From Candidatus Moranbacteria bacterium CG06_land_8_20_14_3_00_40_12 (GTDB lineage: Bacteria; Patescibacteriota; Minisyncoccia; Moranbacterales; UBA2206), in assembly GCA_002780175.1 (NCBI GenBank), contig PEVT01000048.1:8754-72753 (forward strand): a DNA stretch of 64,000 nt, in the 5' to 3' direction. This document shows positions 8,298-56,240 of the stretch, piece by piece. Each line of letters starts with the position of its first letter. Position 1 is the first letter of the stretch. Under the pieces are notes generated by a model that was given only the letters and a program-made list of their open reading frames with translations, did not search any database and was not told the DNA's origin. A program made the translations under genes and the position numbers.

Positions 8298-8813
8298 ATG
8301 CGGGAAAATTTTAAAAAAAATGAAAAAAAGGGCTATTCTTTGCTGGAAGTAATGCTGGTTATTTTTATTCTAGGAACCGCTTTGGTGGTTTTTGTTCAAG
8401 TGATAAGTAAAAGCATCATTCATTCTATGGACAGCCGGGATACGATAATCGCTTCCGAACTGGCTCAAGAAGGAGTGGAGTTGACAATAAATATCCGGGA
8501 TAATAACTGGGCGCAGAAGCTTGAAGATTTCTCGGGAATAGATAACGGATCTCACGCCATAAATTATAACGGCGGCGCTTTAATTTCTTTGGGAACGGGA
8601 AAACTTAGATGGAGCGGCAGCTATTACAATACTTCTTCAGGAAGTGAAACGAAATTCTCCCGGAAGATAATCGTGGATGGCGATGCCGATGTAAAAAAAA
8701 TAACCAGCCTGGTGGTTTGGGAAAGAAACGATTTTCCTCCCGACACGACCTCTTGCCACGCGGCCAATAAATGCGCTTACGCGGAAGTAAATTTGACTAA
8801 ATGGGGAAACTAA
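8298..8813 (+). CDS. Pseudopilin / minor pilin (GspH-like)
   Basis: KKNEKKGYSLLEVMLVIFILGTALVVF prepilin motif. Confidence 0.65.
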   Translation: MRENFKKNEKKGYSLLEVMLVIFILGTALVVFVQVISKSIIHSMDSRDTIIASELAQEGVELTINIRDNNWAQKLEDFSGIDNGSHAINYNGGALISLGTGKLRWSGSYYNTSSGSETKFSRKIIVDGDADVKKITSLVVWERNDFPPDTTSCHAANKCAYAEVNLTKWGN

Positions 8814-8817
8814 AAAC

Positions 8818-9543
8818 ATGAATTTAGAGAAAAATAAAAAAGCCATGCCTGTCGGCAGGCAGGGATTTGCTCCCGCGCCGGAATGTTCCGTATATCGGCC
8901 CTCTCTCCTTAATTCGGCGCAGCGGGTCGGCAAGGCGGCTGAATATGAAAACGGATGGTTAAAAGCCCGAAAGACAAGCGCTTTGGCAAAAGGATTCACA
9001 CTCATAGAAATGATGATTGCGATTTTCATATTTTCTCTAATGATGATCGCGGTGACGGAGATATTTTCCAGTTCCTTTGGCGGATATGGCAACGCCCGCA
9101 ATATCCAAAAAGATTTGGAAGACGCCCAATTTGTGATGGGTCAGATAGCTAAAACTTTGCGAACCAGCAGCATCGTGAATATTGGTGGAAGTTCTGAAAT
9201 AACAGTCTATGATTATTCTCAAAATAAATGCGTTGCTTATCAATTTGTATCCGGAGAAATCAGGACTGACACTACGGCTGATGATTCCGTGCCGTCCACC
9301 AGCGATCCCGTTGACTGGTGTTTTGCGAATTTCTCTCCGGATTTTTCCGCTTATAATAAGATGGCGGCTTTTTTCGTGGATGGCCGGTTTAATTCAATCA
9401 AATCGGACAACACTCCCGGAAGTGAAATATTGGGCAAGGTCACCATTTCAATGAAAATATGTTCCAACTCCAGTTGCTCCAAAGACGAAGCCGTGATTCA
9501 AACGTCAGTTTCTTTAAGAGATTATACCAAGGCGGGAATTTAA
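8818..9543 (+). CDS. Pilin-like protein with abnormally long (~56 aa) leader containing an inserted GC-rich palindromic element
   Basis: The canonical motif AKGFTLIEMMIAIFIFSLMM sits at residue ~55. The first 9 aa (MNLEKNKKA) resemble neighbouring pilin leaders. Nt 8845-8980 are GC-rich and contain CCTGTCGGCAGGCAGG, a variant of the window-wide palindrome. Confidence 0.55.
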   Translation: MNLEKNKKAMPVGRQGFAPAPECSVYRPSLLNSAQRVGKAAEYENGWLKARKTSALAKGFTLIEMMIAIFIFSLMMIAVTEIFSSSFGGYGNARNIQKDLEDAQFVMGQIAKTLRTSSIVNIGGSSEITVYDYSQNKCVAYQFVSGEIRTDTTADDSVPSTSDPVDWCFANFSPDFSAYNKMAAFFVDGRFNSIKSDNTPGSEILGKVTISMKICSNSSCSKDEAVIQTSVSLRDYTKAGI

Positions 9544-10685: not shown

Positions 10686-12833
<2,148 letters not shown>

Positions 12834-12837
12834 AAAA

Positions 12838-12946
12838 TAAGAATTTTAAATTTAGTATTTTGAATTTTGAATGGGAATCTGGAATAAAAAAGTTAGAATC
12901 TTGAATTATTCCAAATTCTAAATTCACAATTCTCAATTCTTAAAAT
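12838..12946. repeat. AT-rich ~110-bp palindromic intergenic element, copy A (GAATTTTGAAT...ATTCTAAATTC)
   Basis: About 85% identical to 13229-13339. Imperfect internal inverted symmetry. Sits immediately upstream of the gatC ATG. Confidence 0.7.
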
Positions 12947-13228
12947 ATGATAACCAAAGACGAAGTAAAATATATTGCCAAACTGGCGAGAATCGGAGTT
13001 TCGGAAAAAGAAGTGGAAAAATTTACGCGTGATTTGTCAGCCGTTTTGGATTGGGTGGAAGAATTGAAAAAAGTTGATATTGAAAAAATTTCCGAAATAA
13101 GCCATATTTTTGGGAGGGAAAATTCCTTAAGAGAGGATCGGGTGGAAAAATTCGCGGAAGCGGAAAAAATCATAGAACTTTTTCCGGAAAAAAAAGAACG
13201 GTATGACAAGGTCAAAAGTATTTTTTAA
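12947..13228 (+). CDS. gatC: Asp/Glu-tRNA amidotransferase subunit C
   Basis: 93 aa. N-terminus MITKDEVKYIAKLARIGVSEKEVEKF...LDWVEEL is GatC-like. gatA lies downstream. Confidence 0.8.
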   Translation: MITKDEVKYIAKLARIGVSEKEVEKFTRDLSAVLDWVEELKKVDIEKISEISHIFGRENSLREDRVEKFAEAEKIIELFPEKKERYDKVKSIF

Positions 13229-13339
13229 AGTAAGGATTTTGAATTTAGCATTTTGAATTTTGAATGGAAATCGGAAATAAAAAATTTAAAATCTTAAATT
13301 ATTCTGAATTCCAAATTCGTAATTCTAAATTCTCTAATT
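13229..13339. repeat. AT-rich ~110-bp palindromic intergenic element, copy B
   Basis: Paralog of 12838-12946. Sits immediately upstream of the gatA ATG. Confidence 0.7.
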
Positions 13340-15416: not shown

Positions 15417-15491
15417 AGCGGGGTAGAGTAATGGCAGCTCGTCTGGCTCATAACCAGGAGGTTGCAGGTTCGAATCCTGCCCCCGCAACCA
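15417..15491 (+). tRNA. tRNA-Met (CAU), initiator-like (fMet)
   Basis: A near-copy of E. coli tRNA-fMet: ...CTGGCTCATAACCAGG... T-arm GGTTCGAATCC. It ends CCCCCGCAACCA with an unpaired 1:72 position and an encoded CCA. Confidence 0.75.
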
Positions 15492-15620
15492 AGCTAAGCT
15501 TGGTTTAGGCCAGCTAAGCTGGCCAACCAAGAAACCAGGATTATTTTAGGTCAGCTAAGCTGGCCAACCAAGAAACTAAGATTATTTTAGGCCAGCTAAG
15601 CTGGCCAACCAAGAAATAAA
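15481..15620 (+). repeat. Tandem array of four hairpins (CCAAGCTAAGCTTGG, then 3x GGCCAGCTAAGCTGGCC at a 41-bp period)
   Basis: Seen directly. Three ~41-bp units (GGCCAGCTAAGCTGGCCAACCAAGAAAyyAgGATTATTTTAG). Sits between the tRNA and the GIY-YIG gene. No unique spacers. Confidence 0.6.
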
Positions 15621-31435: not shown

Positions 31436-32160
31436 GGCAATACGTGTTAAATTTAAATAAATTAATTTTTTCCAGCCAATAAATGGTAGTGTCCAAGAAA
31501 TATTTTAAAAAGAAAAGCGGGTGAGTTTTTTGGTTTTTTTATTAAATGGATAAAAAAATTGGAAACCCGCGTAAGCGGTTTTTTTGTTTGTTTCTACCAG
31601 GTACTAATTACTAATCAAATACCTGCCTACCGGCAGGCAGGCTAATATACTAATAAATTAATTTTATTATTCGTATATTCGTAATAAATTCGTAATTCGT
31701 AAAGATTACAAGCATTACTTCGGAAACCAGTTTATATAACAAAAGATTAGGTTATATGCACACGTTTCCGCAGCAGCAGGACTTTAACAATTGAACAGGT
31801 CTTACTAAAATATTGGATTTCGAGCGCAAGCGGAAATTCGAATTGAATATTTTGGTTAGTCTTCCGGCATCTTCGCAATAAGATGCTGGAAATAGGTTAT
31901 CTTTGTTTTTATGAAGAAAAAACAAAGAAAATTGCAAATAACAAATGTAATTAGAAATTGTTAACTGCTAATTAATTCCGATCTTCTTATGATCGGAAGA
32001 TTCCTGTGAAAAATCAGGAAAAGTTTAAGGTAAGTTACTCAAATGCGTATGGTGGATGCCTTGACATTAAAAAGCGACGAAGGACGTAGCTGGCTGCGAT
32101 AAGCCCCGGGGAGTTGTTAAGCAAACTGTGATCCGGGGATTTCCGAATGCGATAACGCAA

Positions 32161-32350
32161 CCATTCTTCACTAACGTTCAGAATGAAATTTTAAAGACTA
32201 AATTTAAAATTTTAAATCAAATCTAAATGACTAAATTTTAAAAATTTAATCATTTGAAAATTTAAAATTCATTTAAAATTTATAATTTAAAATTGAAAAT
32301 TTACAGTTTTTGTAAATATAAAAGTTCTGAATATTAGCGAAGGATGGTTA
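32161..32350 (+). repeat. AT-rich expansion element in 23S domain I (copy 1)
   Basis: Starts CCATTCTTCACTAACGTTCAGAATGAAATTTTAAAGACTAAATTTAAAATTTTAAATCAAATCTAAATGAC. More than 90% identical to 32474-32600. Its terminal arms are imperfectly complementary. Confidence 0.7.
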
Positions 32351-32473
32351 TTCTTAGCTGAATTCATAGGTTAAGAAAGCGCACCCTGGGAACTGAAACA
32401 TCTTAGTACCAGGAGGAAAAGAAAACAATTGTGATTCCGTCAGTAGTGGCGAGCGAAAGCGGAATAGCCTAAA

Positions 32474-32638
32474 CCATTCTTCACTAACGTTCAGAATGAA
32501 ATTTTAAAGACTAAATTTAAAATTTTAAATCAAATCTAAATGACTAAATTTTAAAACTTTAATCATTTAAAAATTTAAAATTCATTTAAAATTTATAATT
32601 TAAAATTAAAAATTTCCGAGCAATAGCGAGGGATGGTG
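32474..32638 (+). repeat. AT-rich expansion element in 23S domain I (copy 2)
   Basis: Same element as 32161-32350. It is inserted ~130 nt further into the rRNA, after AGTAGTGGCGAGCGAAAGCGGAATAGCC. Confidence 0.7.
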
Positions 32639-32943
32639 TTGCGAGACAATCTTACTCGTTTAATCGGGACCGGTGAAAAATCATAGTGGAAAGCTCCTGG
32701 AAAGGACTGCCAAAGAAGGTGAAAGCCCTGTACATAAAATGATATTTTATCGGCGTGATTGCTCTCAAGTAAGACGGGACCGGTGAAATCCCGTCTGAAT
32801 CCGGGGCCACTATAGCTCCAAGGCTAAATATTTTTAATGATCGATAGCGAACTAGTACCGTGAGGGAAAGGTGAAAAGCATCCCGATGAGGGAGATGAAA
32901 TAGTATCTGAAACCATATGCTAACGAAGAGTCAGAGCCGTGCA

Positions 32944-33118
32944 TAGCACGGAAGCTCCAAATCCAAAATCCCAAATCCAAAATAAATCCCAAATCCAAAA
33001 TCCCAAAGTTTAAAACATTGGGTCATTGGAAAATTGTCTGGCTTTGCCAGACTTGGCGTAGCCAAGGAATTTGTTTGGAAATTGGAAATTGGAAATTGGA
33101 AATTCCGCGCTGTGCGCG
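32944..33118 (+). repeat. IVS-like insertion at 23S helix 25 (CCAAATCC/GGAAATTGG repeat arms, central GTCTGGCTTTGCCAGAC palindrome)
   Basis: It replaces the helix-25 loop between GAGCCGTGCATAGCACGGAAG and GCGCTGTGCGCGGTGATGGCGTGC. Arms are CCAAATCCAAAATCCCAAATCC... and ...GGAAATTGGAAATTGGAAATTCC. Confidence 0.7.
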
Positions 33119-33938
33119 GTGATGGCGTGCTTTTTGTAGAACGAGCCAACGAGTTAGTTCTGTGCGGCTGGATAAGCTACTTTCGTAGCGGATCCACAGT
33201 GAAAGCGAGGCTTAACCGCCGTTCGTTCGTATCATACTGCGTGTGATACTCACTTAAAATCAAAATTAAAAAATCAAAAATTAAAATTTTGGTATGCGCT
33301 TCGCGCATGACAATTATAGATAAGTAATTGTCGCGAAGCGACTCCTTAATTTTTCATTTTGATATTTAATTTTTAAATTTTAGCGAGTATCGAGCGTAGC
33401 GAGATACGAGCGATTGTCGTACGGACTAGACCCGAAGCCAGGCGAGCTATTTATGAGCAGGGTGAATTTGGAGTAAAATCCAAAAGAGGCCCGAACCCAC
33501 GAGCCGTTCAACACTCGGGGATGACTTGTGAATAGAGGAGAAATTCCAATCGAGCTTGGCGATAGCTGGTTCTTCCCGAAATAGCTTGAGGGCTAGTGTC
33601 TTTTAAATGAGCTTAAAAGGTAGAGCTACTGAATGAGAATTCGCGGTTCGCCGTAGGATTCTCAACCAAACTCCGAATTTTTAAGTTTCTTATTAGGGCA
33701 GTCAGAAATCCGGGTCTAAGCTCGGATCTCAAAAGGGAAAAAGCCCAGACCGCAATCTAAGGTCCCCAAATTTATGTTAAGTGGAAAAGGAGGTGAAGTT
33801 TCTTATACACCTAGGAGGTTGGCTCAGAAGCAGCCATCCTTTAAAGAGTGCGTAACAGCTCACTAGTCTAGAGACTTTGCGCCGAAAATTTAACGGGGCT
33901 AAACATAATACCGAAGGTGCGGGTCAGTGTTATGCACT

Positions 33939-34092
33939 GGAAATCCCAAATCCAAAATCCCAAATCCAAAATAAATCCCAAATCCAAAATCCCAAAGTTT
34001 AAAACATTGGGTCATTGGAAAAGTGCCTGCCTGCCGGCAGGCAGGGAATTTGTTTGGAAATTGGAAATTGGAAATTGGAAATTCCAGCGCGT
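33939..34092 (+). repeat. IVS-like insertion at 23S helix 45 (same arm element, central CCTGCCTGCCGGCAGGCAGG palindrome)
   Basis: Arms identical to 32944-33118. The central hairpin is swapped for the 20-bp GC palindrome at 34026-34045. Confidence 0.7.
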
Positions 34093-35261
34093 AGCGCTGG
34101 CGGTAGGGAAGTGTTCTCTGCGCAGCGAAGTCCACGATGTGAATCGGGATGGAGCGCAGAGAAGTAAGAATGTTGGCATGAGTAACCACAATACCGATGA
34201 AAACTCGGTACACCGAAAGTCTAAGGTTTCCTGGGCAATGACAATCATCCCAGGGTTAGTCGGGCCTAAGGCGAGGCCGAAAGGCGTAGTCGATGGACAT
34301 ACGGTTAATATTCCGTAACTTCAAAAATTTTCGATGGAGCGACGTATCTTTGTAGTTTTTGCGCATTATTGGATTTGCGTATTTAATTTGAGGGTGCTTT
34401 TCAGGCAAATCCGGAAAGTATCGCCCAAGAATTAGGTGGAATTCCGACGTAAGTCGGGAGAACAAAGGCGAGCAAGGTACCAGGAAAAACTTCTAAGATT
34501 ATGATTTTTGAATCCGTACTAAAACCGACACAGGTAGACTGGGCGAGAAGCCTAAGGTGAACGGATGAACCTTCGTCAAGGAACTCTGCAATACAACTAG
34601 ACGTAAGTTAGCAAGATGTCTTTCCTACACCACCTTGATTCTTTAGATTATTTTTTAATAAGGAATCAGAGTGGTGTAGGACACAGTAAAAAATTTCAAG
34701 CGACTGTTTATCAAAAACACAGGTCTCTGCAAACTCGCAAGAGGAAGTATAGGGGCTGACGCCTGACCAGTGCTGGAACGTTAACGGAAGCGGTGCAAGC
34801 CAATTCCCGAAGCGCCAGTGAACGTCGGCGATAACTATAATCGTCCTAAGGTAGCGAAATTCCTTGTCAGGTAAGTTCTGACCCGCATCAAAGGCGTAAC
34901 GACTTGAAAACTGTCTCGACGAAGAGTCCGGTGAAATTGCAATGGCGGTAAAGATGCCGTCGACCTGCAGCAAGACGAAAAGACCCCGTGGAGCTTTACT
35001 ACAACTTGGTATTGACTTAGAGTTTTAGTTGCCGAGCTTAGGTGGGAGGCTGTGAAGTCCCGATTCTGGTCGGGATGGAGCCAACAAGTGGAATACCACC
35101 CTGCTGATGTTCTAAGTCTAACCCTGGTCTGTTATGAGTCTACTAAGACGAATAACCATTGATGAACCAGAAAATATACTCAAATTGTTTAGTGTGTTTT
35201 TCATGGTTCAAAAATTTATTTAGTCTTAGTTATTCATACCAGACCGGGAACAGTGCCTGGT

Positions 35262-35294
<33 letters not shown>

Positions 35295-35455
35295 GGCAAC
35301 GGAGGCGTTTACAAAGGTTGGCTAGGTCCGGATGGAAATCGGACTGATAGTACAAAAGCATAAGCCAGCTTTACTGAAAGACCCATAAGTCAATCAGTCA
35401 CGAAAGTGGAATTTAGTGAACCGACCATCGCTCATAGGAGCGTGGAAGATCATCA

Positions 35456-35488
<33 letters not shown>

Positions 35489-35620
35489 CCTCCCAAGAGT
35501 CCACATCGACGGAGGGGTTTGGCACCTCGATGTCGGCCCATCGCATCCTGGGGGTGGAGAAGCTCCCAAGGGTTTGGCTGTTCGCCAATTAAAGCGGTAC
35601 GCGAGCTGGGTTCAAACCGT

Positions 35621-35903
35621 AAAACAGCTTTTAGCTATTAGCTTATAGCTTTTAGGTAAAGGAAATTTTACAGTTTGAATCCGAGGTAAAGACATCACAA
35701 GCGGCGGCTTTTAGTAGCAATATTAAAAGTGAAGCTAACTTATATCGGTAAAATCCCGAATTCTCGGGACAATACCGAGGGAATGGTTCGACTTTGCTCA
35801 CCATGAGCGATAAGAATCGACCCGTAGAGACTAAACGTTAGCCTTCCTGAATTTTAGGGAAGAATTTATAGTCCATACACGCAGTAATGCGTGAACCAGT
35901 ATG
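35621..35903 (+). ncRNA. Putative group I intron (283 nt) in 23S domain V near the peptidyl-transferase centre
   Basis: It interrupts GGGTTCAAACCGT | CGTGAGACAGGTTGG (E. coli GGGUUUAGAACGUCGUGAGACAG). The 5' exon ends in U and the insert ends in G. P7-like strands AGAGACTAAACG and TATAGTC sit ~60 nt apart. No ORF. Confidence 0.5.
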
Positions 35904-36099
35904 CGTGAGACAGGTTGGTCTCCTATCTGCTGTGGGCGTTTATTGCTTGAGAGGAGTCTTTTTTAGTACGAGAGGACCGAAAAGAACGAACCTCTGGTGT
36001 ACCAGTTGCATCGCCAGATGCACAGCTGGGTAGCTAAGTTCGGACTGGATAATCGCTGAAAGCATATAAGCGAGAAGCCATCCTCAAGATTAGGCAATG

Positions 36100-36290
36100 C
36101 CAATGCGTAGCATTGGAATAACCAATGACCAAGTACCAATGACCAATAAATTTCCAATGACCGAATGAACAATTTTTAAATTAAAAGTTTGATTATTGGA
36201 GTTTGGGATTTGAGATTTTTTTGGAATTTGGAATTTGGAATTTGGAAATTCCACTGCTATGCAGTGGCCGATTTCCTGGAAGATTACCAG
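36100..36290 (+). repeat. Expansion insertion in 23S 3' domain (helix ~98 region) with (GGAATTT)x4 and CCAATGACC repeats
   Basis: Sits between GCATATAAGCGAGAAGCC and GATAGGTCTCAGGTGTAAGT. Contains TTTGGAATTTGGAATTTGGAATTTGGAAATTCC. Confidence 0.6.
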
Positions 36291-36532
36291 GTCGCCGCGA
36301 GGCGAACCTCGCCAAAGCCGCAAGGCGGAGGCGGGTTGATAGGTCTCAGGTGTAAGTCCGGCAACGGATTAAGCCGAGAGATACTAATAAATTGAATTGT
36401 TACTTATCTTAAATTTTAATGACGCAGGCACATAGCAAATAACTTTGGGTTATTCGCTGTGGCCGCGTGTTGTTGGATTAGCAGTTAATAGTTTCTAATT
36501 TCGCGCTTTTTTTGATTTTAAACATATAATTC

Positions 36533-36647
36533 TTGGTGTCTCTAGCGAAGTGGCAACACCTGATCCCATTCCGAACTCAGCCGTTAAGCACTTCAGCACC
36601 GATGATACCCCGACATTATGTCCGGGGAAAGTAGGCCGGTGCCAAGA
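36533..36647 (+). rRNA. rrf: 5S ribosomal RNA
   Basis: TTGGTGTCTCTAGCGAAGTGGCAACACCTGATCCCATTCCGAACTCAGCCGTTAAGCACTTCAGCACCGATGATACC...GGCCGGTGCCAAGA. It lies ~120 nt after the 23S gene. Confidence 0.85.
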
Positions 36648-39042: not shown

Positions 39043-39375
39043 ATGAAAAATAAAAAAGATGATTTCCTTGACTTCGCCAAGTCTGGGGAAGCCAAACAGT
39101 CTTTCGTTAAATGTTCTGTTTGCCGGTATGATTTTAAACAAGAAAATCTGACGGTATTGGAGGAAAATCAACGGCAGAGCATTTTTCACGCTTCTTGTCC
39201 AAATTGTAAAACAGCCACTATGATTTTTTTGTCGAGTACTCATTCCGGATTGGTTAGTTTAGGGATGGCGACTGATTTGAATCAAGAGGAAGCTAAATTC
39301 TTTTTTGGCCGGGAAGCCGTGAATGTCGACGAAGTTATAGACGTGCATAGCCTGCTTTTTAAAGGTAAAATATAA
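39043..39375 (+). CDS. Small zinc-ribbon protein (CxxC...CxxC)
   Basis: CSVC...CPNC pairs. 110 aa. Confidence 0.35.
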   Translation: MKNKKDDFLDFAKSGEAKQSFVKCSVCRYDFKQENLTVLEENQRQSIFHASCPNCKTATMIFLSSTHSGLVSLGMATDLNQEEAKFFFGREAVNVDEVIDVHSLLFKGKI

Positions 39376-42875: not shown

Positions 42876-43274
42876 ATGTATACAAAAGGAATAGTTAAAA
42901 AAGATATAAAAATATTATATCCCGAACTGTCCTATAATTTAAATGGAATATTTTTTAAAATACACAAGGGATTGGGTCGATATTGTAGAGAAAAACAATA
43001 TGCAAATGCTTTTGAAAAAGAACTAATTAGTAAAAGTATAAAATATACGCGAGAGGAAAGAATTGTTAAGGGTGATAATTTTACAGGAAATATAACAGAT
43101 TTTATAATCGAAAATTGTGTAGTCGTTGAATTGAAAGCTAAAAAATTTGTGACTAAAAATGATTTTTATCAAGTGAAAAGATATTTAATAAGTTTAAATA
43201 AAAAACTAGGATTAATTGTGAATTTCAGGGACGACTTCATTAAAACAAAAAGAGTTTTAAATGATTGTTCGTAG
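42876..43274 (+). CDS. GxxExxY family protein (PD-(D/E)xK-like)
   Basis: Conserved GxxExxY-family layout (...CREKQYANAFEKEL...IVEN...VELKA). Confidence 0.55.
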   Translation: MYTKGIVKKDIKILYPELSYNLNGIFFKIHKGLGRYCREKQYANAFEKELISKSIKYTREERIVKGDNFTGNITDFIIENCVVVELKAKKFVTKNDFYQVKRYLISLNKKLGLIVNFRDDFIKTKRVLNDCS

Positions 43275-43312
43275 GTTCGTATTTTAATTCGTAGTTTCGA
43301 ATCGGATAATAT

Positions 43313-44320
43313 ATGTTTGTTCGCAAAATTGGAATTGATTTAGGCACGGCCAATACCCTGGTTTATGTCCCGAAAAAAGGCATCATGGTGAATGAACCCA
43401 GCGTGGTGGCTATTTCTTTGGTGGATAATAAAGTTTTAGCCATTGGCAATTATGCCAAAGAGATGTTGGGCCGCACGCCGGACACGATTATCGCCAGCCG
43501 TCCCATGAAAGACGGCGTGATTGCCGATTATCGGATCACGGAAGCCATGCTTAAATATTTTATCAATAAAGTCAGCGGAAAATTCCGGCTGGTCCGGCCG
43601 GAAGTTTTAATTTCCATTCCGGCCGGCGTGACTTCCACTGAAAGGCGGGCTGTGATTGACGCGGCTATGCGTTCCGGAGCCAAAGCGGCCTATGTGGTCA
43701 AAGAGCCGATTTTAGCGGCGATCGGCGCCGGCATCCCCATTAATTTTCCCACAGGCAATATGATAATTGATATCGGCGGTGGAACCTCGGAAGTGGCTGT
43801 CATCTCTCTGGGAGGCATTGTAGCGACGCACAGCGCCCGTGTAGGCGGTAATAAACTGGATCAAGCCATCGCGGACTATATAAAAAGAAAACACTGTCTG
43901 GCCATCGGAGACAAAACAGCCGAAGAAATTAAAATTCTGATCGGCTCGGCTTTGCCGCAGGCCAAAGATGAGCATATGGAAATACACGGCCGGGATCTTT
44001 CCGGCGGATTGCCTAAAACTATCAGAATCTTTTCCAATGAAATAACGGAAGCGATGCAAGACGAACTGCGGGAAATAATTTCGGCCATTAAAAAAGTTTT
44101 GCAGGAAACGCCGCCGGAACTGGCGGCGGACATTATGGATAAAGGCATGGTGCTTTCCGGCGGAGGAGCGCTGCTTAACCATCTGGACCAATTGATTGTC
44201 AAAACCATCGAGGTGCCTTGCTATGTGGCCGAAGAACCGCTGCTCTGCGTGATTAAAGGCATCGGAGTGGTGCTGGATAATCTGGATCAATACAAGCGGA
44301 CGATAATGCTAAGTAAATAA
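43313..44320 (+). CDS. mreB: Rod-shape-determining actin homolog MreB
   Basis: The phosphate-1 motif (IGIDLGTANTLVYV) and the DIGGGTSEVAVISLGG motif. Confidence 0.9.
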   Translation: MFVRKIGIDLGTANTLVYVPKKGIMVNEPSVVAISLVDNKVLAIGNYAKEMLGRTPDTIIASRPMKDGVIADYRITEAMLKYFINKVSGKFRLVRPEVLISIPAGVTSTERRAVIDAAMRSGAKAAYVVKEPILAAIGAGIPINFPTGNMIIDIGGGTSEVAVISLGGIVATHSARVGGNKLDQAIADYIKRKHCLAIGDKTAEEIKILIGSALPQAKDEHMEIHGRDLSGGLPKTIRIFSNEITEAMQDELREIISAIKKVLQETPPELAADIMDKGMVLSGGGALLNHLDQLIVKTIEVPCYVAEEPLLCVIKGIGVVLDNLDQYKRTIMLSK

Positions 44321-44440
44321 ATTTTAAATTTAAAATTCTAAATTTTAAATCAATTTTAAATTATCAAATGTTTAAATTATTTAAAAATTTATTCATTTAG
44401 ATTTCATTTAAAATTTTAAATTTAGAATTTAAAATTTCCA

Positions 44441-45631
44441 ATGATTATTGATCTTGACGGTTCGCGCGCTTTTTTACGGCAGCGGACCGGCATTGAAGAA
44501 TATTCTTATCAAGTTATTAAGCACCTGATTAATGAATTAAAAAACGATCAGGTTGTTTTGTATATACGTAAAAATCAGAATATTGATTTTAAACTGCCAA
44601 GCAATTGGAAAATTAAAATTATTAAGTGGCCTTATTTTTGGACTCAAATCGGACTTTCCCTGGAAATGCTTTTGCATCCGGCAGACGCGCTTTTTATTTC
44701 GGCCCATATTATTCCGTTAATTCATCCTAAAAAAACTCTTGTCACTATTCATGGCCTGGAATATGAATTTATTCCCCAAGCTTATTCTTTGTGGGAAAAA
44801 ATATATATGCGTTTCGCGATTAAAAAATCCTGCCGCCAGGCGCGAAAAATAATCGCGGTTTCGAAAAACACTAAGAGAGATTTGATGAAATTATACAAAG
44901 TGCCGGAGGAAAAAATCATTGTGATATATGAGGGTTATGTCATTGCGAGCAAAGCGAAGCAATCTAATAATAAAAATGAGATTGCCGCGGTCGTTCGTGG
45001 CGAACTCCCTCGCAATGACAATGTTGGGAAACATCTACTTTTTATTGGAAGACTCGAAGAACGTAAAAACATCATTGGAATCATCAAAGCTTTTGAAATC
45101 TTGAAAGAAAAATATAAAATTCCCCACAAATTGATTTTAGCGGGAAAACCTGGTTTTAACTATGAAAATATCCAGTCCTATCTGTCCAATTCGTCCTATA
45201 AGTCTGATATTATTCTAACCGGTTTTGTAAGCGAAGAAGAAAAACAAAAATTGTTAAAAAACGCGGAGGTTTTTCTTTTTCCCACATTTTATGAGGGCTT
45301 TGGTTTGCCAATTTTGGAAGCGCAAAATGCCGGCGTGCCGGTCGTAGCTTCCAATAATTCTTCCATTCCGGAAGTGGTAAAAATCCCCCCTAGCCCCCCT
45401 TTTGCAAAGGGGGAAAACAATTTTTCTCCCTTTTTAAAAAGGAGAGTTGGAGAGGGATTTTCCGCTCTGCTTGTTAATCCCAAAAATCCAACAGAGATCG
45501 CCGAAGCAACTTACAAACTTATCACTGATAAAAATCTTAAAGAAGATATGATAAAAAAAGGCTTGGAAAATACCAAGCGTTTCAGCTGGAAAAAATGCGC
45601 AAGTCAAATTGCTAAATTGTTAAAAGGCTAA
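44441..45631 (+). CDS. GT4-family glycosyltransferase carrying an in-frame ~85-bp palindromic insertion
   Basis: GT-B C-terminal domain with E-x7-E-like motifs (FLFPTFYEGFGLPILEAQNAGVPVVASN). The segment KIPPSPPFAKGENNFSPFLKRRVGEGFSA (nt 45379-45464) is a GC palindrome (CCCCCCTTTTGCAAAGGGGG; CTCCCTTTTTAAAAAGGAGAG) with no match in the GT4 fold. Confidence 0.75.
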   Translation: MIIDLDGSRAFLRQRTGIEEYSYQVIKHLINELKNDQVVLYIRKNQNIDFKLPSNWKIKIIKWPYFWTQIGLSLEMLLHPADALFISAHIIPLIHPKKTLVTIHGLEYEFIPQAYSLWEKIYMRFAIKKSCRQARKIIAVSKNTKRDLMKLYKVPEEKIIVIYEGYVIASKAKQSNNKNEIAAVVRGELPRNDNVGKHLLFIGRLEERKNIIGIIKAFEILKEKYKIPHKLILAGKPGFNYENIQSYLSNSSYKSDIILTGFVSEEEKQKLLKNAEVFLFPTFYEGFGLPILEAQNAGVPVVASNNSSIPEVVKIPPSPPFAKGENNFSPFLKRRVGEGFSALLVNPKNPTEIAEATYKLITDKNLKEDMIKKGLENTKRFSWKKCASQIAKLLKG

Positions 45632-45667
45632 ATGGCTATTTTTTGAAAATAAAAAACTAGAATTGAG

Positions 45668-45695
45668 ATGCGAGAGGTTGGGCATCCTCTCGCAT
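45668..45695. terminator. Bidirectional hairpin between convergent genes (ATGCGAGAGG-TTGGGCAT-CCTCTCGCAT)
   Basis: 10-bp perfect stem, seen directly. Confidence 0.6.
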
Positions 45696-45705
45696 GAAAA
45701 GAACT

Positions 45706-45921
45706 TTAGTCGTTTTCGTTTAGATCAAGTAAAAATTCAAGGGTAGCTTTCCTTTCAATCAGATGGATTGTTTCATCCAGAAGATCCATAGCCACTCGAA
45801 CATTATTTCTAATGAATGTTGCAAGATCAGAAGCTTCAGGATGTTGCTTGAAGATGTTTGCATCTGGCAATGTATCAAGACGTTCTAACGCTGTTCTAAG
45901 ATTTTTCAGATTAATATCCAT
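45706..45921 (-). CDS. Small hypothetical protein (71 aa), sole minus-strand gene in this stretch
   Basis: The ORF runs convergent to the upstream GT4 gene. A hairpin follows. No family recognised. Confidence 0.3.
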   Translation of the reverse strand: MDINLKNLRTALERLDTLPDANIFKQHPEASDLATFIRNNVRVAMDLLDETIHLIERKATLEFLLDLNEND

Positions 45922-46096
45922 AATATATCTCTCCTCCTTTTTTGCCCAATTCTAATTTTCTATTTTATTTTTAAAGACAAAAACAAATTTTGGCGATAAC
46001 TTTTTGGCTTATATAATAGATTGTGGTATGATTTTAATACAAGCGCGGTCTCTTATTAAGTGCATAATATCACGAAATTTAGAAAAAGCAATAAAA

Positions 46097-47302
46097 ATGA
46101 CGGAATTAAAAAAAGATTTAAAAATAGCCCTAGTTCACGATTTTCTGACGCAATACGGGGGAGCGGAGCGGGTCTTGGAAGTATTTTGCGAAATGTTTCC
46201 CAAAGCGCCGATTTATACCTTGCTTTATGATAAGGTTGCAATGCGCGGAAAATTTAAGGACAGAGAGATCCATACTTCTTTTTTACAAAAATTCCCCAAA
46301 TTTTTACGAAAAAAGAAAAAATGGCTCTTGCCTCTGATGCCGACCGCGCCGGAAACTTTCAATCTAAGGGATTTTGATTTGATTATTTCCAGCTGCGGAG
46401 TTTGGTCCAAAGCGATTATTACCCGATTAGATGTAAAACATATCTGTTATATGCACAGCCCAATGCGTTTTGCCTGGGAAGAGGGGGAGGAATATTTGCT
46501 GGAACAGAAAAGATCGGCGAAAACCAATTTTTTTGTCCGCCTGCTACTTAATTATTTACGCGTCTGGGACAGAGTTTCAGCTGACCGGCCGGATTATCTG
46601 ATTGCCAATTCGCGGTTTACCCGGGAAAGAATAAAAAAATATTATAACAGGGAGAGTGTTGTTATTTATCCGCCGGTAAATATGGAACATGAAACACGGA
46701 ACATAGAACAACAAAATCCCTTGGTTGCGCCAAGTCTGGCGAAGCCAGACAAATCTCAAACAATCCGCCAGCCGGCGGACAAAATTCAAAATTCAAAATT
46801 TTTTTTGGTTGTATCAAGGCTCTCTCCTTATAAAAAAATAGACGCGGCCGTAGAAGCTTTTAATAAATTAGAATTGCCGCTCATCGTAATCGGCGAAGGA
46901 TCGCAGGAAAAATATTTGCGTTCCATCGCTGGAAAAAATGTAAAAATTTTAGGTTGGCAACCGGAAGAAAAAATCAGGGAATATTACGCGGGTGCCAGAG
47001 CTTTTATCTTCGCGGGCGTGGATGATTTCGGGATGACGATGGTGGAAGCGTTGGCGCGGGGCGTTCCGGTGCTGGCGCTTAAAAAAGGCGGAGCTCTGGA
47101 AATCGTGGCAGAAGGGAAAACCGGCGAATTTTTTGTTTCCAACAAGCCGGAAATAATTGCCGAGTGCGTGAAGAGATTTATGGAAAAAGAAAAAGAATAC
47201 GACAAAAATCTTATAATAGAAAGCGCCAAAAAATTCAGTAAAGAGAGATTCGTTAGGGAATTTGAAGAATACATGGCAAAAATTTTAAATGACAAATTTT
47301 AA
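46097..47302 (+). CDS. GT4-family glycosyltransferase with in-frame palindromic insertion
   Basis: The start at 46097 (MTELKKDLKIALVHDFLTQYGGAERV) matches GT4 N-termini. C-terminal GT-B motifs are present (FIFAGVDDFGMTMVEALARGVPVLA). The segment LVAPSLAKPDKSQTIRQPADKIQNSKFF contains GTCTGGCGAAGCCAGAC (46734-46750). Confidence 0.75.
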   Translation: MTELKKDLKIALVHDFLTQYGGAERVLEVFCEMFPKAPIYTLLYDKVAMRGKFKDREIHTSFLQKFPKFLRKKKKWLLPLMPTAPETFNLRDFDLIISSCGVWSKAIITRLDVKHICYMHSPMRFAWEEGEEYLLEQKRSAKTNFFVRLLLNYLRVWDRVSADRPDYLIANSRFTRERIKKYYNRESVVIYPPVNMEHETRNIEQQNPLVAPSLAKPDKSQTIRQPADKIQNSKFFLVVSRLSPYKKIDAAVEAFNKLELPLIVIGEGSQEKYLRSIAGKNVKILGWQPEEKIREYYAGARAFIFAGVDDFGMTMVEALARGVPVLALKKGGALEIVAEGKTGEFFVSNKPEIIAECVKRFMEKEKEYDKNLIIESAKKFSKERFVREFEEYMAKILNDKF

Positions 47303-47422
47303 ATTTTAAATCAAATCCCTGCCTGCCGGCAGGCAGGTAAATGAATAAATTTTAAAACATTTAATCATTAAAAATTTATAATTCACTTAAAATTTAGAAT
47401 TTAAAATTGAAAATTATTTTCT

Positions 47423-48364
47423 ATGAATATCATCGGCCATAAAAAAATTATTGATTTATTAGATAAAGCTGTTGCTAAAAATAGCGTATCGCAGGCTTAT
47501 CTTTTTTCCGGTCCTTCCGGAGTCGGCAAGTTTCAAACGGCCAAGTATTTCGCGGAAAAAATTTTAGGATCCAGTCAGCAGCGGATCAGCGATGCCCTGG
47601 TAATTTTGGAAGCGGATAAGGAGAAAAATTCCGAAGAGCCGGTTGGGGAAGAAAAAAACGCCAAAGCGGATAAAACCAAAATGAAAAAAGGGGAAATAAA
47701 AATTGAGGAAATAAGAGAATTAAAAAGGAAGCTTTTTCTAAGTTCGGAAACAGGCCGGAAAGTCGCTATTATCCGCGGAGCGGAAAAATTAAATAAATCT
47801 TCCCAGAACGCTTTATTAAAAATTTTGGAAGAACCCAATGAAGGATTAACGATAATTTTAGTGGCGGATGACGAAAAAAAACTTTTTCCCACCATTATTT
47901 CCCGCTGCCAAAAAACCCGTTTTGGAATAGTGGCCGATGGGGAAATTAGCAAATTAGTTGATTCCCGGGGAAAAAATTTAAACCCCGAAATCAAGCAGGC
48001 TATACTTTTTTGGTCTATCGGCCGGCCGGGCTTGGCCTTGGAAATGCTGGAAAATCCGGAAAAACTGGAATTGAGAGTCTGTTCTTTTCGGGAGGCCCGG
48101 AATCTTTTTCAAAAAACCGTTTTGGAAAAGTTTGTCTTAGCGGAAAATTTAGCCAAAGATTTAAATGGCGCCTTGGCCAAAATGAATATCTGGGTGGTGG
48201 GAATAAGGGAGGCGTTGCTCAAAGGCGGATTAGAGGGAATTTCACAGGAAAAAAGCCTGGAAATACTGGAAAAAATAAGCGAGAGCCGGAAACTGCTTGG
48301 TCAAACTAATGCTAACGCCAAGCTAATCCTGGAAAATATGCTATTAGCTTTTTCGCGAAAATAA
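47423..48364 (+). CDS. holB: DNA polymerase III clamp-loader subunit delta' (HolB-like AAA+)
   Basis: Walker A-like GPSGVGKFQTAKYFAEKIL and the sensor region TIISRCQ. A low-complexity insert is present. Confidence 0.65.
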   Translation: MNIIGHKKIIDLLDKAVAKNSVSQAYLFSGPSGVGKFQTAKYFAEKILGSSQQRISDALVILEADKEKNSEEPVGEEKNAKADKTKMKKGEIKIEEIRELKRKLFLSSETGRKVAIIRGAEKLNKSSQNALLKILEEPNEGLTIILVADDEKKLFPTIISRCQKTRFGIVADGEISKLVDSRGKNLNPEIKQAILFWSIGRPGLALEMLENPEKLELRVCSFREARNLFQKTVLEKFVLAENLAKDLNGALAKMNIWVVGIREALLKGGLEGISQEKSLEILEKISESRKLLGQTNANAKLILENMLLAFSRK

Positions 48365-56207: not shown

Positions 56208-56220
56208 AAAAATGTCATTG

Positions 56221-56240
56221 CCTGCCTGCCGGCAGGCAGG
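56221..56240. repeat. Perfect 20-bp palindrome CCTGCCTGCCGGCAGGCAGG preceded by TGTCATTG
   Basis: Seen directly after the ATPase stop. Identical copies lie at 34026-34045 and 47318-37. A 1-mismatch copy lies at 31622-41. Degenerate copies lie at 7761-79, 8848-63 and 53633-80. Confidence 0.85.

Follow-up and report, generated by a model that had tools for sequence, protein, structure and literature searches.

An AT-rich, heptamer-periodic repeat at 23S rRNA helix tips and in stop-to-start spacers of Patescibacteria

This study asked why one AT-rich sequence should stand both inside a 23S rRNA gene and directly upstream of protein-coding genes in Candidatus Moranbacteria bacterium CG06_land_8_20_14_3_00_40_12. 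The DNA analyzed, hereafter the window, is the 64,000-nt stretch at positions 8,754 to 72,753 of contig PEVT01000048.1 (GCA_002780175.1), and coordinates are those of the window unless a locus number is given. An initial annotation of this DNA had proposed that a single repeat family populates the rRNA insertions and the gene-upstream regions. We identified four copies of an AT-rich unit of approximately 118 nt, two of them inside the 23S rRNA gene and two filling the spacers between the stop codon of one gene and the start codon of the next. The family to which they belong is dispersed, lineage-restricted, insertionally polymorphic, and orientation-free, and it occurs both at 23S helix tips and in stop-to-start spacers. 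We consider it probable that these copies represent a new Patescibacteria family of self-folding repeats, resembling enterobacterial repetitive intergenic consensus (ERIC) sequences and miniature inverted-repeat transposable elements (MITEs), which would be tolerated at 23S tips and between cistrons through its own fold.

A repeat search and BLASTN both recovered the four copies. Copy 1 (32185-32302, plus strand) and copy 2 (32498-32615, plus strand) lie in a 144-nt duplication within the 23S gene that is 98% identical (32159-32302 versus 32472-32615 in the repeat search, which placed the further copies at 44319-44436 and 47280-47415). With the first 23S insert as the query against the window, BLASTN returned 32472-32615 (97.9% over 144 nt), 44438-44318 on the minus strand (89.3% over 121 nt, whereas the plus strand reached only 75%), and 47280-47430 (76% over 156 nt). 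Copy 3 (44318-44437, minus strand) is inverted relative to copies 1, 2, and 4. Copy 4 (47279-47415, plus strand) and its BLASTN match are broken by a nested 20-nt GC palindrome, CCTGCCTGCCGGCAGGCAGG (47318-47337), which belongs to a separate small repeat family. The four copies are the longest inverted repeats anywhere in the window: copy 1 corresponds to inverted repeat I3 with 58-nt arms, copy 2 to I2, and copy 3 to I1 with 59-nt arms that are 81% complementary.

A 24-mer derived from the unit matched the window seven times at no more than three mismatches, versus 0.06 matches expected. The six pairwise local alignment scores among the four copies ranged from 58 to 112, whereas the control maxima were 32-43 for dinucleotide shuffles, 32-46 for a heptamer-phase composition model, and 27 for real AT-rich stretches of the window. 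Because the pairwise scores lie above all controls, the similarity exceeds low complexity, and the four copies constitute one homologous repeat family. BLASTN and these controls, which include the shuffled-sequence comparison that the initial annotation had called for, bear out its central claim; it was also right that the copy upstream of holB carries the GC palindrome and that a long AT hairpin is to be expected. The core segments that it reported (32228-32300 and 32555-32625) do lie inside the 23S gene, but the unit spans approximately 118 nt (32185-32302) and not approximately 70 nt; the copy that it placed upstream of the GT4 gene (44330-44440) is present, but its inverted orientation had been missed. 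The palindromy, the 7-nt periodicity, the copying of the whole second 23S insert into the first, the lineage-wide spread, and the insertional polymorphism had likewise escaped it.

To trace the repeat beyond the window, one genome for each GTDB species was scanned for exact matches to a 24-mer of the unit. The scan yielded 110 stretches, of which 78 were labeled as members of the Candidate Phyla Radiation (CPR), 23 bore ambiguous automatic labels, and 9 were labeled as non-CPR. A profile built from the four window copies gave 131 non-overlapping matches in these loci, with up to five copies per 8-kb locus. Full-length copies were present in approximately 45 species-level genomes, nearly all of them Patescibacteria (CPR), and the carrier lineages comprised Moran-, Kuenen-, Yonath-, Staskawicz-, Yanofsky-, Paceibacter-, Levy-, and Curtissbacteria. 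Among the nine loci with non-CPR labels, seven lacked the element, one held a partial copy, and one was a 3.9-kb contig of an automatically binned metagenome-assembled genome (MAG). Loci labeled "Bdellovibrionales" were syntenic with Moranbacteria loci at 70-75% DNA identity, and these labels are therefore probably wrong. Viral contigs contained no exact match to the 24-mer, and a search of the literature returned no description of such a repeat in CPR bacteria.

Members of the family are imperfect palindromes of approximately 105-120 bp that are approximately 90% A+T and periodic in heptamers; the termini of the unit, AATTTTAAA...TTTAAAATT, are terminal inverted repeats. Most positions of alignment columns 7-15 are paired with their counterparts in columns 124-132 in more than 85% of copies. 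In a 70-copy alignment (A4), 81.5% of cells are paired in the mirror register i+j=139; a shift of the partner by one column lowers this share to 56-59%, and a shift by two or three columns to 21-35%. The covariation score was 0.072 versus 0.057, and none of 500 shuffles reached 0.072. Self-match was 0.58 at a lag of 7 and 0.49 at a lag of 14, versus 0.40 in shuffled sequence. Stop codons occur in all six frames in 69 of the 70 copies; a reading frame that enters a copy runs for a median of four codons before it terminates.

A long A/U hairpin was predicted for every copy. The minimum free energy was -19.6 kcal/mol for the sense strand and -19.8 kcal/mol for the antisense strand, with 141 and 135 G-U pairs, respectively. 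Strand-specific RNA selection was rejected because folding energy, G-U counts, and G versus C content are alike on both strands; the symmetry of the fold therefore belongs to the DNA, or equally to both strands, with no sign of selection on one RNA strand. One mirror position, columns 38/101 of A4, holds C/C in 31 copies, G/G in 22, and a Watson-Crick pair in only 7 of the 70; it corresponds to 32222/32268 in copy 1 and 32535/32581 in copy 2. This C/C or G/G non-pair is conserved and switches as a unit. Rfam contained no family with a gathering-threshold match to the repeat in the window, and a scan of 44250-44500 at E<=10 returned only noise.

The two copies within the 23S rRNA gene (32028-36411, plus strand; Rfam RF02541, 2257.8 bits, model positions 1-2925) stand at helix tips. 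Insert 1 (32160-32348, plus strand) is located at the tip of the helix-9 hairpin, after approximately E. coli nt 147, and comprises a 5' stem strand (32160-32184), the unit (32185-32302), a linker, and a 3' stem strand (32325-32348). Insert 2 (32473-32637, plus strand) is located at the tip of a domain-I hairpin at approximately E. coli nt 271-295 (Rfam model positions 274-297) and comprises a 5' stem strand (32473-32497), the unit (32498-32615), and a 3' stem strand (32616-32637). The Rfam alignment places a 176-nt insert in the loop at approximately model position 138 and a 147-nt insert in the loop at approximately position 283. The predicted minimum free energies of the hairpins are -50.8 kcal/mol for insert 1 and -38.0 kcal/mol for insert 2, with basal stems of 17-25 bp. 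Both inserts share with 23S intervening sequences (IVSs) the addition of sequence at the tip of a conserved 23S helix and paired 5' and 3' ends that form one stem-loop.

The site at approximately E. coli nt 274 is also occupied sporadically among related taxa, as is typical of IVSs. Insert 2 and its flanking stem are orthologous in a Moranbacteria MAG (L016); in a Levyibacteriota MAG (L032), a member of the family occupies this tip on other stems, and in a Levybacteria MAG (L092) the site is empty, with only a short native hairpin. The helix-9 tip of L016 holds a different heptamer hairpin. Inserts 1 and 2 have in common the unit, 25 nt of the 5' stem, and homologous 3' stem strands (19/23). 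From the shared unit and stems, we infer that insert 1 is a copy of the entire insert-2 hairpin that moved between two helices and not a separate insertion of the unit.

The two intergenic copies of the window each take up the whole of a 120-nt spacer. Copy 3 occupies the spacer (44321-44440) between the MreB gene (43313-44320) and a GT4 gene (44441-45631); the MreB stop codon overlaps one edge of the copy, and the GT4 ATG lies 3-4 nt beyond the other. Copy 4 occupies the spacer (47303-47422) between a second GT4 gene (GT4#2, 46004-47302) and holB (47423-48364); the last eight codons and the stop codon of GT4#2 fall inside the copy, and the holB ATG lies 7 nt beyond its end. The same placement was found across genomes: none of 99 full-length copies lay inside an open reading frame (ORF), and 89 lay between co-directional genes. 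The next ATG was within 12 nt of the copy edge in 51 of these 89 cases, with a mode of 8 nt, and the upstream stop codon overlapped or abutted the copy edge in 38. Co-directionality itself was rejected as a signal, as approximately 90% of adjacent gene pairs in the window are co-directional.

The element has no preferred direction. Its orientation relative to transcription was random (32/65), the orientation of the C/C versus G/G marker was 29 versus 18 (p=0.14), and that of the tetranucleotide arm was 24 versus 23. The copies are, as MITEs are, small, non-coding, multi-copy, and present in both orientations. A Kuenenbacteria locus (L030) has four consecutive spacers of an operon resembling a type IV secretion system (T4SS) filled by the element. 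A reading of this array as integron cassettes was rejected: it is an ordinary T4SS-like operon, and the flanking genes keep their synteny.

Comparison of orthologous sites revealed insertional polymorphism. The gene order MreB, GT4, GT4#2, holB is kept in relatives. The GT4#2-holB spacer contains the element in the window and in L120 (90% identical), the two copies differing slightly in the position of the GC palindrome; in L118 it contains an unrelated 108-nt GC-rich sequence and no element, and in L119 and L121 only 57 and 37 nt of plain heptamer repeats. The tandem heptamers in these last two loci (ATGTTAT, ATGTTTC, ATGTTCC x3; L119 7944-8000 and L121 2753-2789) abut the holB ATG.

The MreB-GT4 junction was examined through a scan of metagenomes for MreB, which gave 80 loci; the junction was read in the 24 with the closest MreB, many of which keep the MreB-GT4 pair. 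It contains the family element in the window, L118, L119, and L134, and measures 0-6 nt, reading taa(N0-6)ATG, in L145, L131, L130, and L136. Other heptamer-periodic palindromes occupy it in L122, L124, L125, L126, and L146, GC-rich palindromes in L127, L129, and L143, and a CCAAAAT/GGAAATTTGG-type hairpin, in the style of the helix-25 and helix-45 inserts of the window, in L138. Filled and empty orthologous sites, a further property of MITEs, were thus found at the holB spacer, the MreB-GT4 junction, and the 23S helix tip. These comparisons indicate that copies have been gained, lost, and replaced at co-directional stop-to-start junctions and at 23S helix tips. Since empty junctions measure 0-2 nt, the few bases between the end of the element and the ATG would have to arrive with the insert.

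Copies were more similar within genomes than between them (identity 0.822 versus 0.782, p=5.5e-7), 20 of 44 copies had their nearest neighbor in their own genome, and genome-specific subfamilies were recognizable. Some non-orthologous copies of different genomes were 94-95% identical. The MreB-GT4 copy was identical at 120/120 positions in L118 and at 116/118 in L119, whereas the third codon positions of MreB in the same comparisons were only 62-68% identical and those in the first 300 nt of GT4 64% and 45% identical. A low substitution rate of AT-rich DNA is insufficient as the cause of the 120/120 identity, because another AT-rich spacer of the same genomes could not be aligned outside its promoter-proximal 70 nt. 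These conserved MreB-GT4 copies still accept GC-palindrome insertions of 20-40 nt. In 12 further orthologous pairs, the element was 74-99% identical and exceeded its flanks in 11, a result tempered by the paralogue baseline of approximately 78-82%. The conservation of orthologous copies could reflect either purifying selection on the sequence or lateral replacement of short tracts limited to the element.

One contig, L123 (Ga0210020_1012582), had appeared to be a distant relative with an identical element. Aligned with 43184-46320 of the window, it shows approximately 70% identity as far as 43783 and 100% identity from 43784, and the switch falls within mreB. Either the assembly joined two sequences or recombination took place in nature, and the contig was left out of the counts.

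How could both habitats accept the same element? A self-contained fold would make each of them permissive. At a 23S helix tip, the element would merely lengthen the helix as an IVS-type or expansion-type insert, and RNase III might then excise the rRNA insert, or the insert might remain on the surface of the ribosome. Between cistrons, the foot of the hairpin would bring the upstream stop codon and the next ATG together, a juxtaposition that would suit a genome mostly without Shine-Dalgarno sites.

Several points weigh against this explanation. The covariation is modest, because most columns are invariant A or T; RNAalifold found no consensus structure in the 70-copy alignment, because heptamer slippage blurs the register; and the mirror pairing was specified by hand and tested against slid-register controls. 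The target-site duplication that marks MITEs, for which the initial annotation had recommended a check, was not seen at filled versus empty MreB-GT4 junctions, and the TA that frequently flanks copies is self-complementary and indistinguishable from an extension of the inverted repeat. No transposase gene lay next to copies in the loci read (e.g., L030), although no systematic search was made. An identity of 120/120 beside 62% at MreB third positions is atypical for a selfish repeat. Because the loci were seeded with one exact 24-mer, the arm that contains it appears more conserved than it is and diverged copies are underrepresented; the genes around the copies were called by a crude ORF finder that takes the first ATG, and taxon labels are those of the MAG records, in which labels and assemblies can be wrong. 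Finally, excision, retention, processing, and coupling of transcribed copies are steps that we infer.

The family could also be a Patescibacteria-specific functional element that is kept base by base and is not a passenger, which we regard as rather unlikely. If it were functional, the intercistronic hairpin could juxtapose stop codon and ATG for reinitiation without a Shine-Dalgarno sequence, or the heptads could form an array to which a lineage-specific protein binds by recognizing the folded strand. Such a protein would explain the conserved C/C or G/G non-pair. A functional element would also imply that the 23S copies are retained in mature ribosomes as true bacterial expansion segments built from the same module.

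A role in RNA processing, which the initial annotation had raised, seems somewhat more plausible, if still less likely than not as the primary function. The element might exist as an A/U duplex substrate of RNase III that provides for its own excision from the 23S precursor, with a fragmented 23S rRNA as the outcome, and for cuts in mRNA between cistrons; early transcripts of phage T7 are cut between cistrons by RNase III. Duplexes of approximately 50 bp are predicted for all copies, the 23S sites used are classical IVS sites, and the position in operons is strictly intercistronic. Tsurumaki et al. (2024; PMC11270868) also describe short ORF-less 23S inserts of CPR bacteria as "probably" IVSs. 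The enzyme, however, needs a duplex shape and not a sequence, which leaves both the near-perfect sequence conservation and the conserved C/C or G/G non-pair unexplained. Six-frame translations of the window contained no RNase III signature, a result that covers the window only and is uninformative for the genome. RNase III processing is compatible with the self-folding repeat proposed here and not exclusive of it.

The initial annotation had also suggested that the copies may supply promoters or UP-element-like A/T tracts. Conservation of the element as dedicated cis-regulatory DNA, whether a promoter (possibly near-leaderless), UP-like tracts, or a terminator, would account for orthologous copies being conserved above their flanks, and a TTTAAA-17-TAAAAT match stops 5 nt short of the GT4 ATG. 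Across the family, the terminal TAAAAT keeps a fairly fixed distance of 6-13 nt from the ATG; in this genome, several ATGs are preceded at 6 nt by clear TGnTAnAAT boxes, and Shine-Dalgarno sites are few. A mirror image of the match, however, stands at the opposite end of the element and points into MreB; the match lacks the TG extension of the clear -10 boxes, and the modal spacing from -10 box to ATG is 9-10 nt versus 6 nt in the clear cases, on which grounds the terminal TAAAAT was rejected as a leaderless promoter. Moreover, copies occur in either orientation, the holB copy has no promoter match on the sense strand, and the same sequence stands inside the 23S gene. The element is dispensable at orthologous junctions, three relatives lacking it in the holB spacer, and it has no GC stem or T-run for termination except where the GC palindrome is nested. 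The promoter proposal is weak on this evidence, and we consider a dedicated cis-regulatory role unlikely. It is least probable of all that no copying took place and that AT-rich heptamer arrays and palindromes arose repeatedly in place through slippage and template switching. A 7-nt periodicity does appear in every hairpin family seen and in the plain tandem arrays upstream of holB (L119, L121), different palindromes occupy the same junction in different lineages, and target duplication was not seen. Nevertheless, the alignment scores are far above the heptamer-phase composition model, and non-periodic landmarks (AAATCAAATCTAAATGA, the variable tetranucleotide, and the C/C or G/G marker) are shared at non-orthologous sites by copies of different genomes that are 90-95% identical. 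The occurrence of both orientations and the 144-nt, 98% identical duplicate within the 23S gene also speak against origin in place, which is refuted by the near-identity of non-orthologous copies.

Separately from the repeat, extended -10 boxes of the form TGnTAnAAT stand approximately 6 nt before the ATGs at 10689, 39043, 40211, 53023, and 51358 (minus strand), and most genes of the window have no Shine-Dalgarno motif. This pattern suggests that leaderless or near-leaderless mRNAs may be frequent in this genome.

In architecture and behavior, the closest kin of the self-folding repeat family are ERICs, Correia-type MITEs, and classical 23S IVSs. ERICs, also termed intergenic repeat units (IRUs), are imperfect palindromes of approximately 127 bp in enterobacteria. 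They share with the CPR family the size class and the imperfect palindrome; both lie in intergenic parts of operons that are transcribed, occur in either orientation and in tens of copies per genome, and include variants with internal insertions; in both, conservation across genera is puzzling for a selfish repeat, and the mobilizing enzyme of either is not known. Unlike ERICs, the CPR family is approximately 90% A+T and has a 7-nt periodicity, so that homology is implausible on composition alone and the likeness is architectural only. It further differs in its occurrence in Patescibacteria and also in 23S helix tips, in abutting the stop codon and lying approximately 8 nt from the next ATG, and in the same-strand C/C or G/G non-pair.

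Correia elements of Neisseria are co-transcribed, their hairpins are RNase III substrates, and they can carry promoter hexamers. Correia elements, or Neisseria miniature insertion sequences (NEMIS), and MITEs in general resemble the present repeats in being small, non-coding, and hairpin-forming, in their terminal inverted repeats, in their location at gene boundaries, and in their filled and empty sites. MITEs are, however, defined by a target-site duplication and a cognate insertion sequence (IS), whereas the CPR family shows no duplication, has no known partner IS, and is palindromic along its whole length and not only at its ends. It therefore cannot be filed as a MITE. Palindromes between cistrons also recall repetitive extragenic palindromic (REP) sequences and bacterial interspersed mosaic elements (BIMEs), and the nested 20-nt GC palindrome is REP-like, but REPs are 20-40 nt long and GC-rich. 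Likewise, the attC sites of integrons are imperfect palindromes of 60-140 nt that follow the stop codons of co-oriented genes and have conserved unpaired bases. They flank mobile cassettes, whereas the CPR copies flank housekeeping genes in conserved synteny (MreB, GT4, holB, and the T4SS-like operon), and inspection of alignment A4 revealed no attC cores of the form RYYYAAC/GTTRRRY.

Classical 23S IVSs occur in helix 9 of alpha-proteobacteria and in helices 25 and 45 of Salmonella, Yersinia, and Campylobacter, and also in Leptospira and Coxiella. The CPR inserts resemble them in that stem-loops are added to the tips of surface helices, helix 9 among them, in their sporadic presence among relatives, in the occurrence of related inserts in two helices of one gene, and in a suspected lateral origin. 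Classical IVSs are excised from the precursor by RNase III and the ends are not religated, so that the 23S rRNA is left fragmented, whereas the CPR inserts are known here from sequence and predicted fold, and the core of the CPR inserts belongs to a dispersed intergenic repeat family that spans the superphylum. CPR 23S inserts shorter than 200 bp that are ORF-less, are not introns, and recur at the same sites have been judged "probably" IVSs (Tsurumaki et al. 2024, J Bacteriol, PMC11270868), and these are the same objects as the short 23S inserts of the window. That paper leaves the short inserts uncharacterized, and the words "repeat" and "intergenic" are absent from its text.

Although the rRNA introns of CPR bacteria are understood, the short ORF-less inserts had thus been left aside (PMC11270868). 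The present results indicate that at least two of these short 23S inserts are members of dispersed families of hairpin repeats, which also occupy stop-to-start gaps in many CPR lineages. This membership provides a concrete and testable origin for IVS- or expansion-type rRNA inserts, namely self-folding repeats landing on helix tips. The repeat sequence can serve as a probe for such inserts, and the series of filled and empty sites can be used for studying the movement of the element. Intergenic DNA more conserved than the surrounding genes has been found here in genomes thought to be stripped of regulatory sequence. The repeats are also likely points of breakage and chimera formation in CPR metagenome assemblies and, through the stop codons that they bring in every frame, can displace the predicted ends of genes.

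The 23S gene that hosts the two inserts is 4384 nt long as compared with the 2925 positions of the model, and the approximately 1461 extra nt are distributed across nine insertion blocks, which an alignment with E. coli rrlH places at approximately nt 147, 274, 296, 539, 654, 1185, 2213, and 2593 and near the 3' end. All nine blocks are extended hairpins on predicted folding. Such enlargement is normal for the group: 82% of CPR 23S genes have inserts, with a mean of approximately 1.2 kb (PMC11270868, PMC9297842). A 5S gene follows the 23S gene at 36532-36647, and the Rfam scan of the window showed no 16S gene nearby. A group I intron without an ORF (35686-35894; Rfam RF00028, 51.8 bits, E=1.9e-12) lies within the 283-nt insert after approximately E. 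coli nt 2593; it was seen in a targeted scan only and had not been reported by the whole-window scan at gathering thresholds. The holB product of the window is identical on GCA_002771255.1 (PCRU01000008.1) and on several groundwater metagenome contigs, and its homologues carry the names Patescibacteria, Parcubacteria, or Moraniibacteriota.

Other hairpin repeats share these habitats. The insert at approximately E. coli nt 654 (33226-33414) has AAAATCA-type arms and GCGAAGCG modules, and its core has intergenic relatives that are 74-78% identical in two CPR genomes (L045 3062-3181 and L020 4678-4805); on this similarity, it appears to be a second family with both rRNA and intergenic habitats. 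A further hairpin family was observed in the 23S inserts at 32950-33106, 33939-34085, and 36191-36252 (approximately E. coli nt 539, nt 1185, and near the 3' end), with CCAAATC-type 5' arms, GGAAATT-type 3' arms, abundant G-U pairs, and swappable GC apical modules. Two of its copies are 90-94% identical, and in L138 the MreB-GT4 junction is filled by a hairpin of this style. A small gatC-like ORF is flanked on either side by a stop-to-start spacer that a heptamer-periodic palindrome of approximately 110 nt (GAATTTT type) fills completely; the two palindromes, at 12834-12947 and 13227-13339, are 85% identical.

GC-rich and tandem repeats were also seen. The 20-nt palindrome CCTGCCTGCCGGCAGGCAGG occurs in the window not only at 47318-47337 but also at 34026-34045, approximately 31620-31640, approximately 8846-8866, and approximately 56219-56238, and elsewhere in L118, L119, L120, L127, L143, and L145, in the last of which it lies inside a GT4 coding region. 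Where it is nested within the AT-rich element, its position differs among L118, L119, and L120, and the family looks REP-like and independently mobile. A second short GC-rich repeat, TGGCnnnGCCAGAnnTGGCGAAGCCAGACA, is present at 12575-12605, 33039-33069, 39069-39099, and 46722-46752, one of these copies forming the apex of the 23S insert at approximately E. coli nt 539. The GC-rich palindromic module GTCATCCTGAGCGAAG...TCGAAGGATC, found at 7893-8000 of L118 and downstream of mreB in L129 and L143, is possibly another dispersed repeat. Just downstream of a tRNA gene, 15491-15616 consists of three tandem 41-nt units, each of which contains a GGCCAGCTAAGCTGGCC palindrome.

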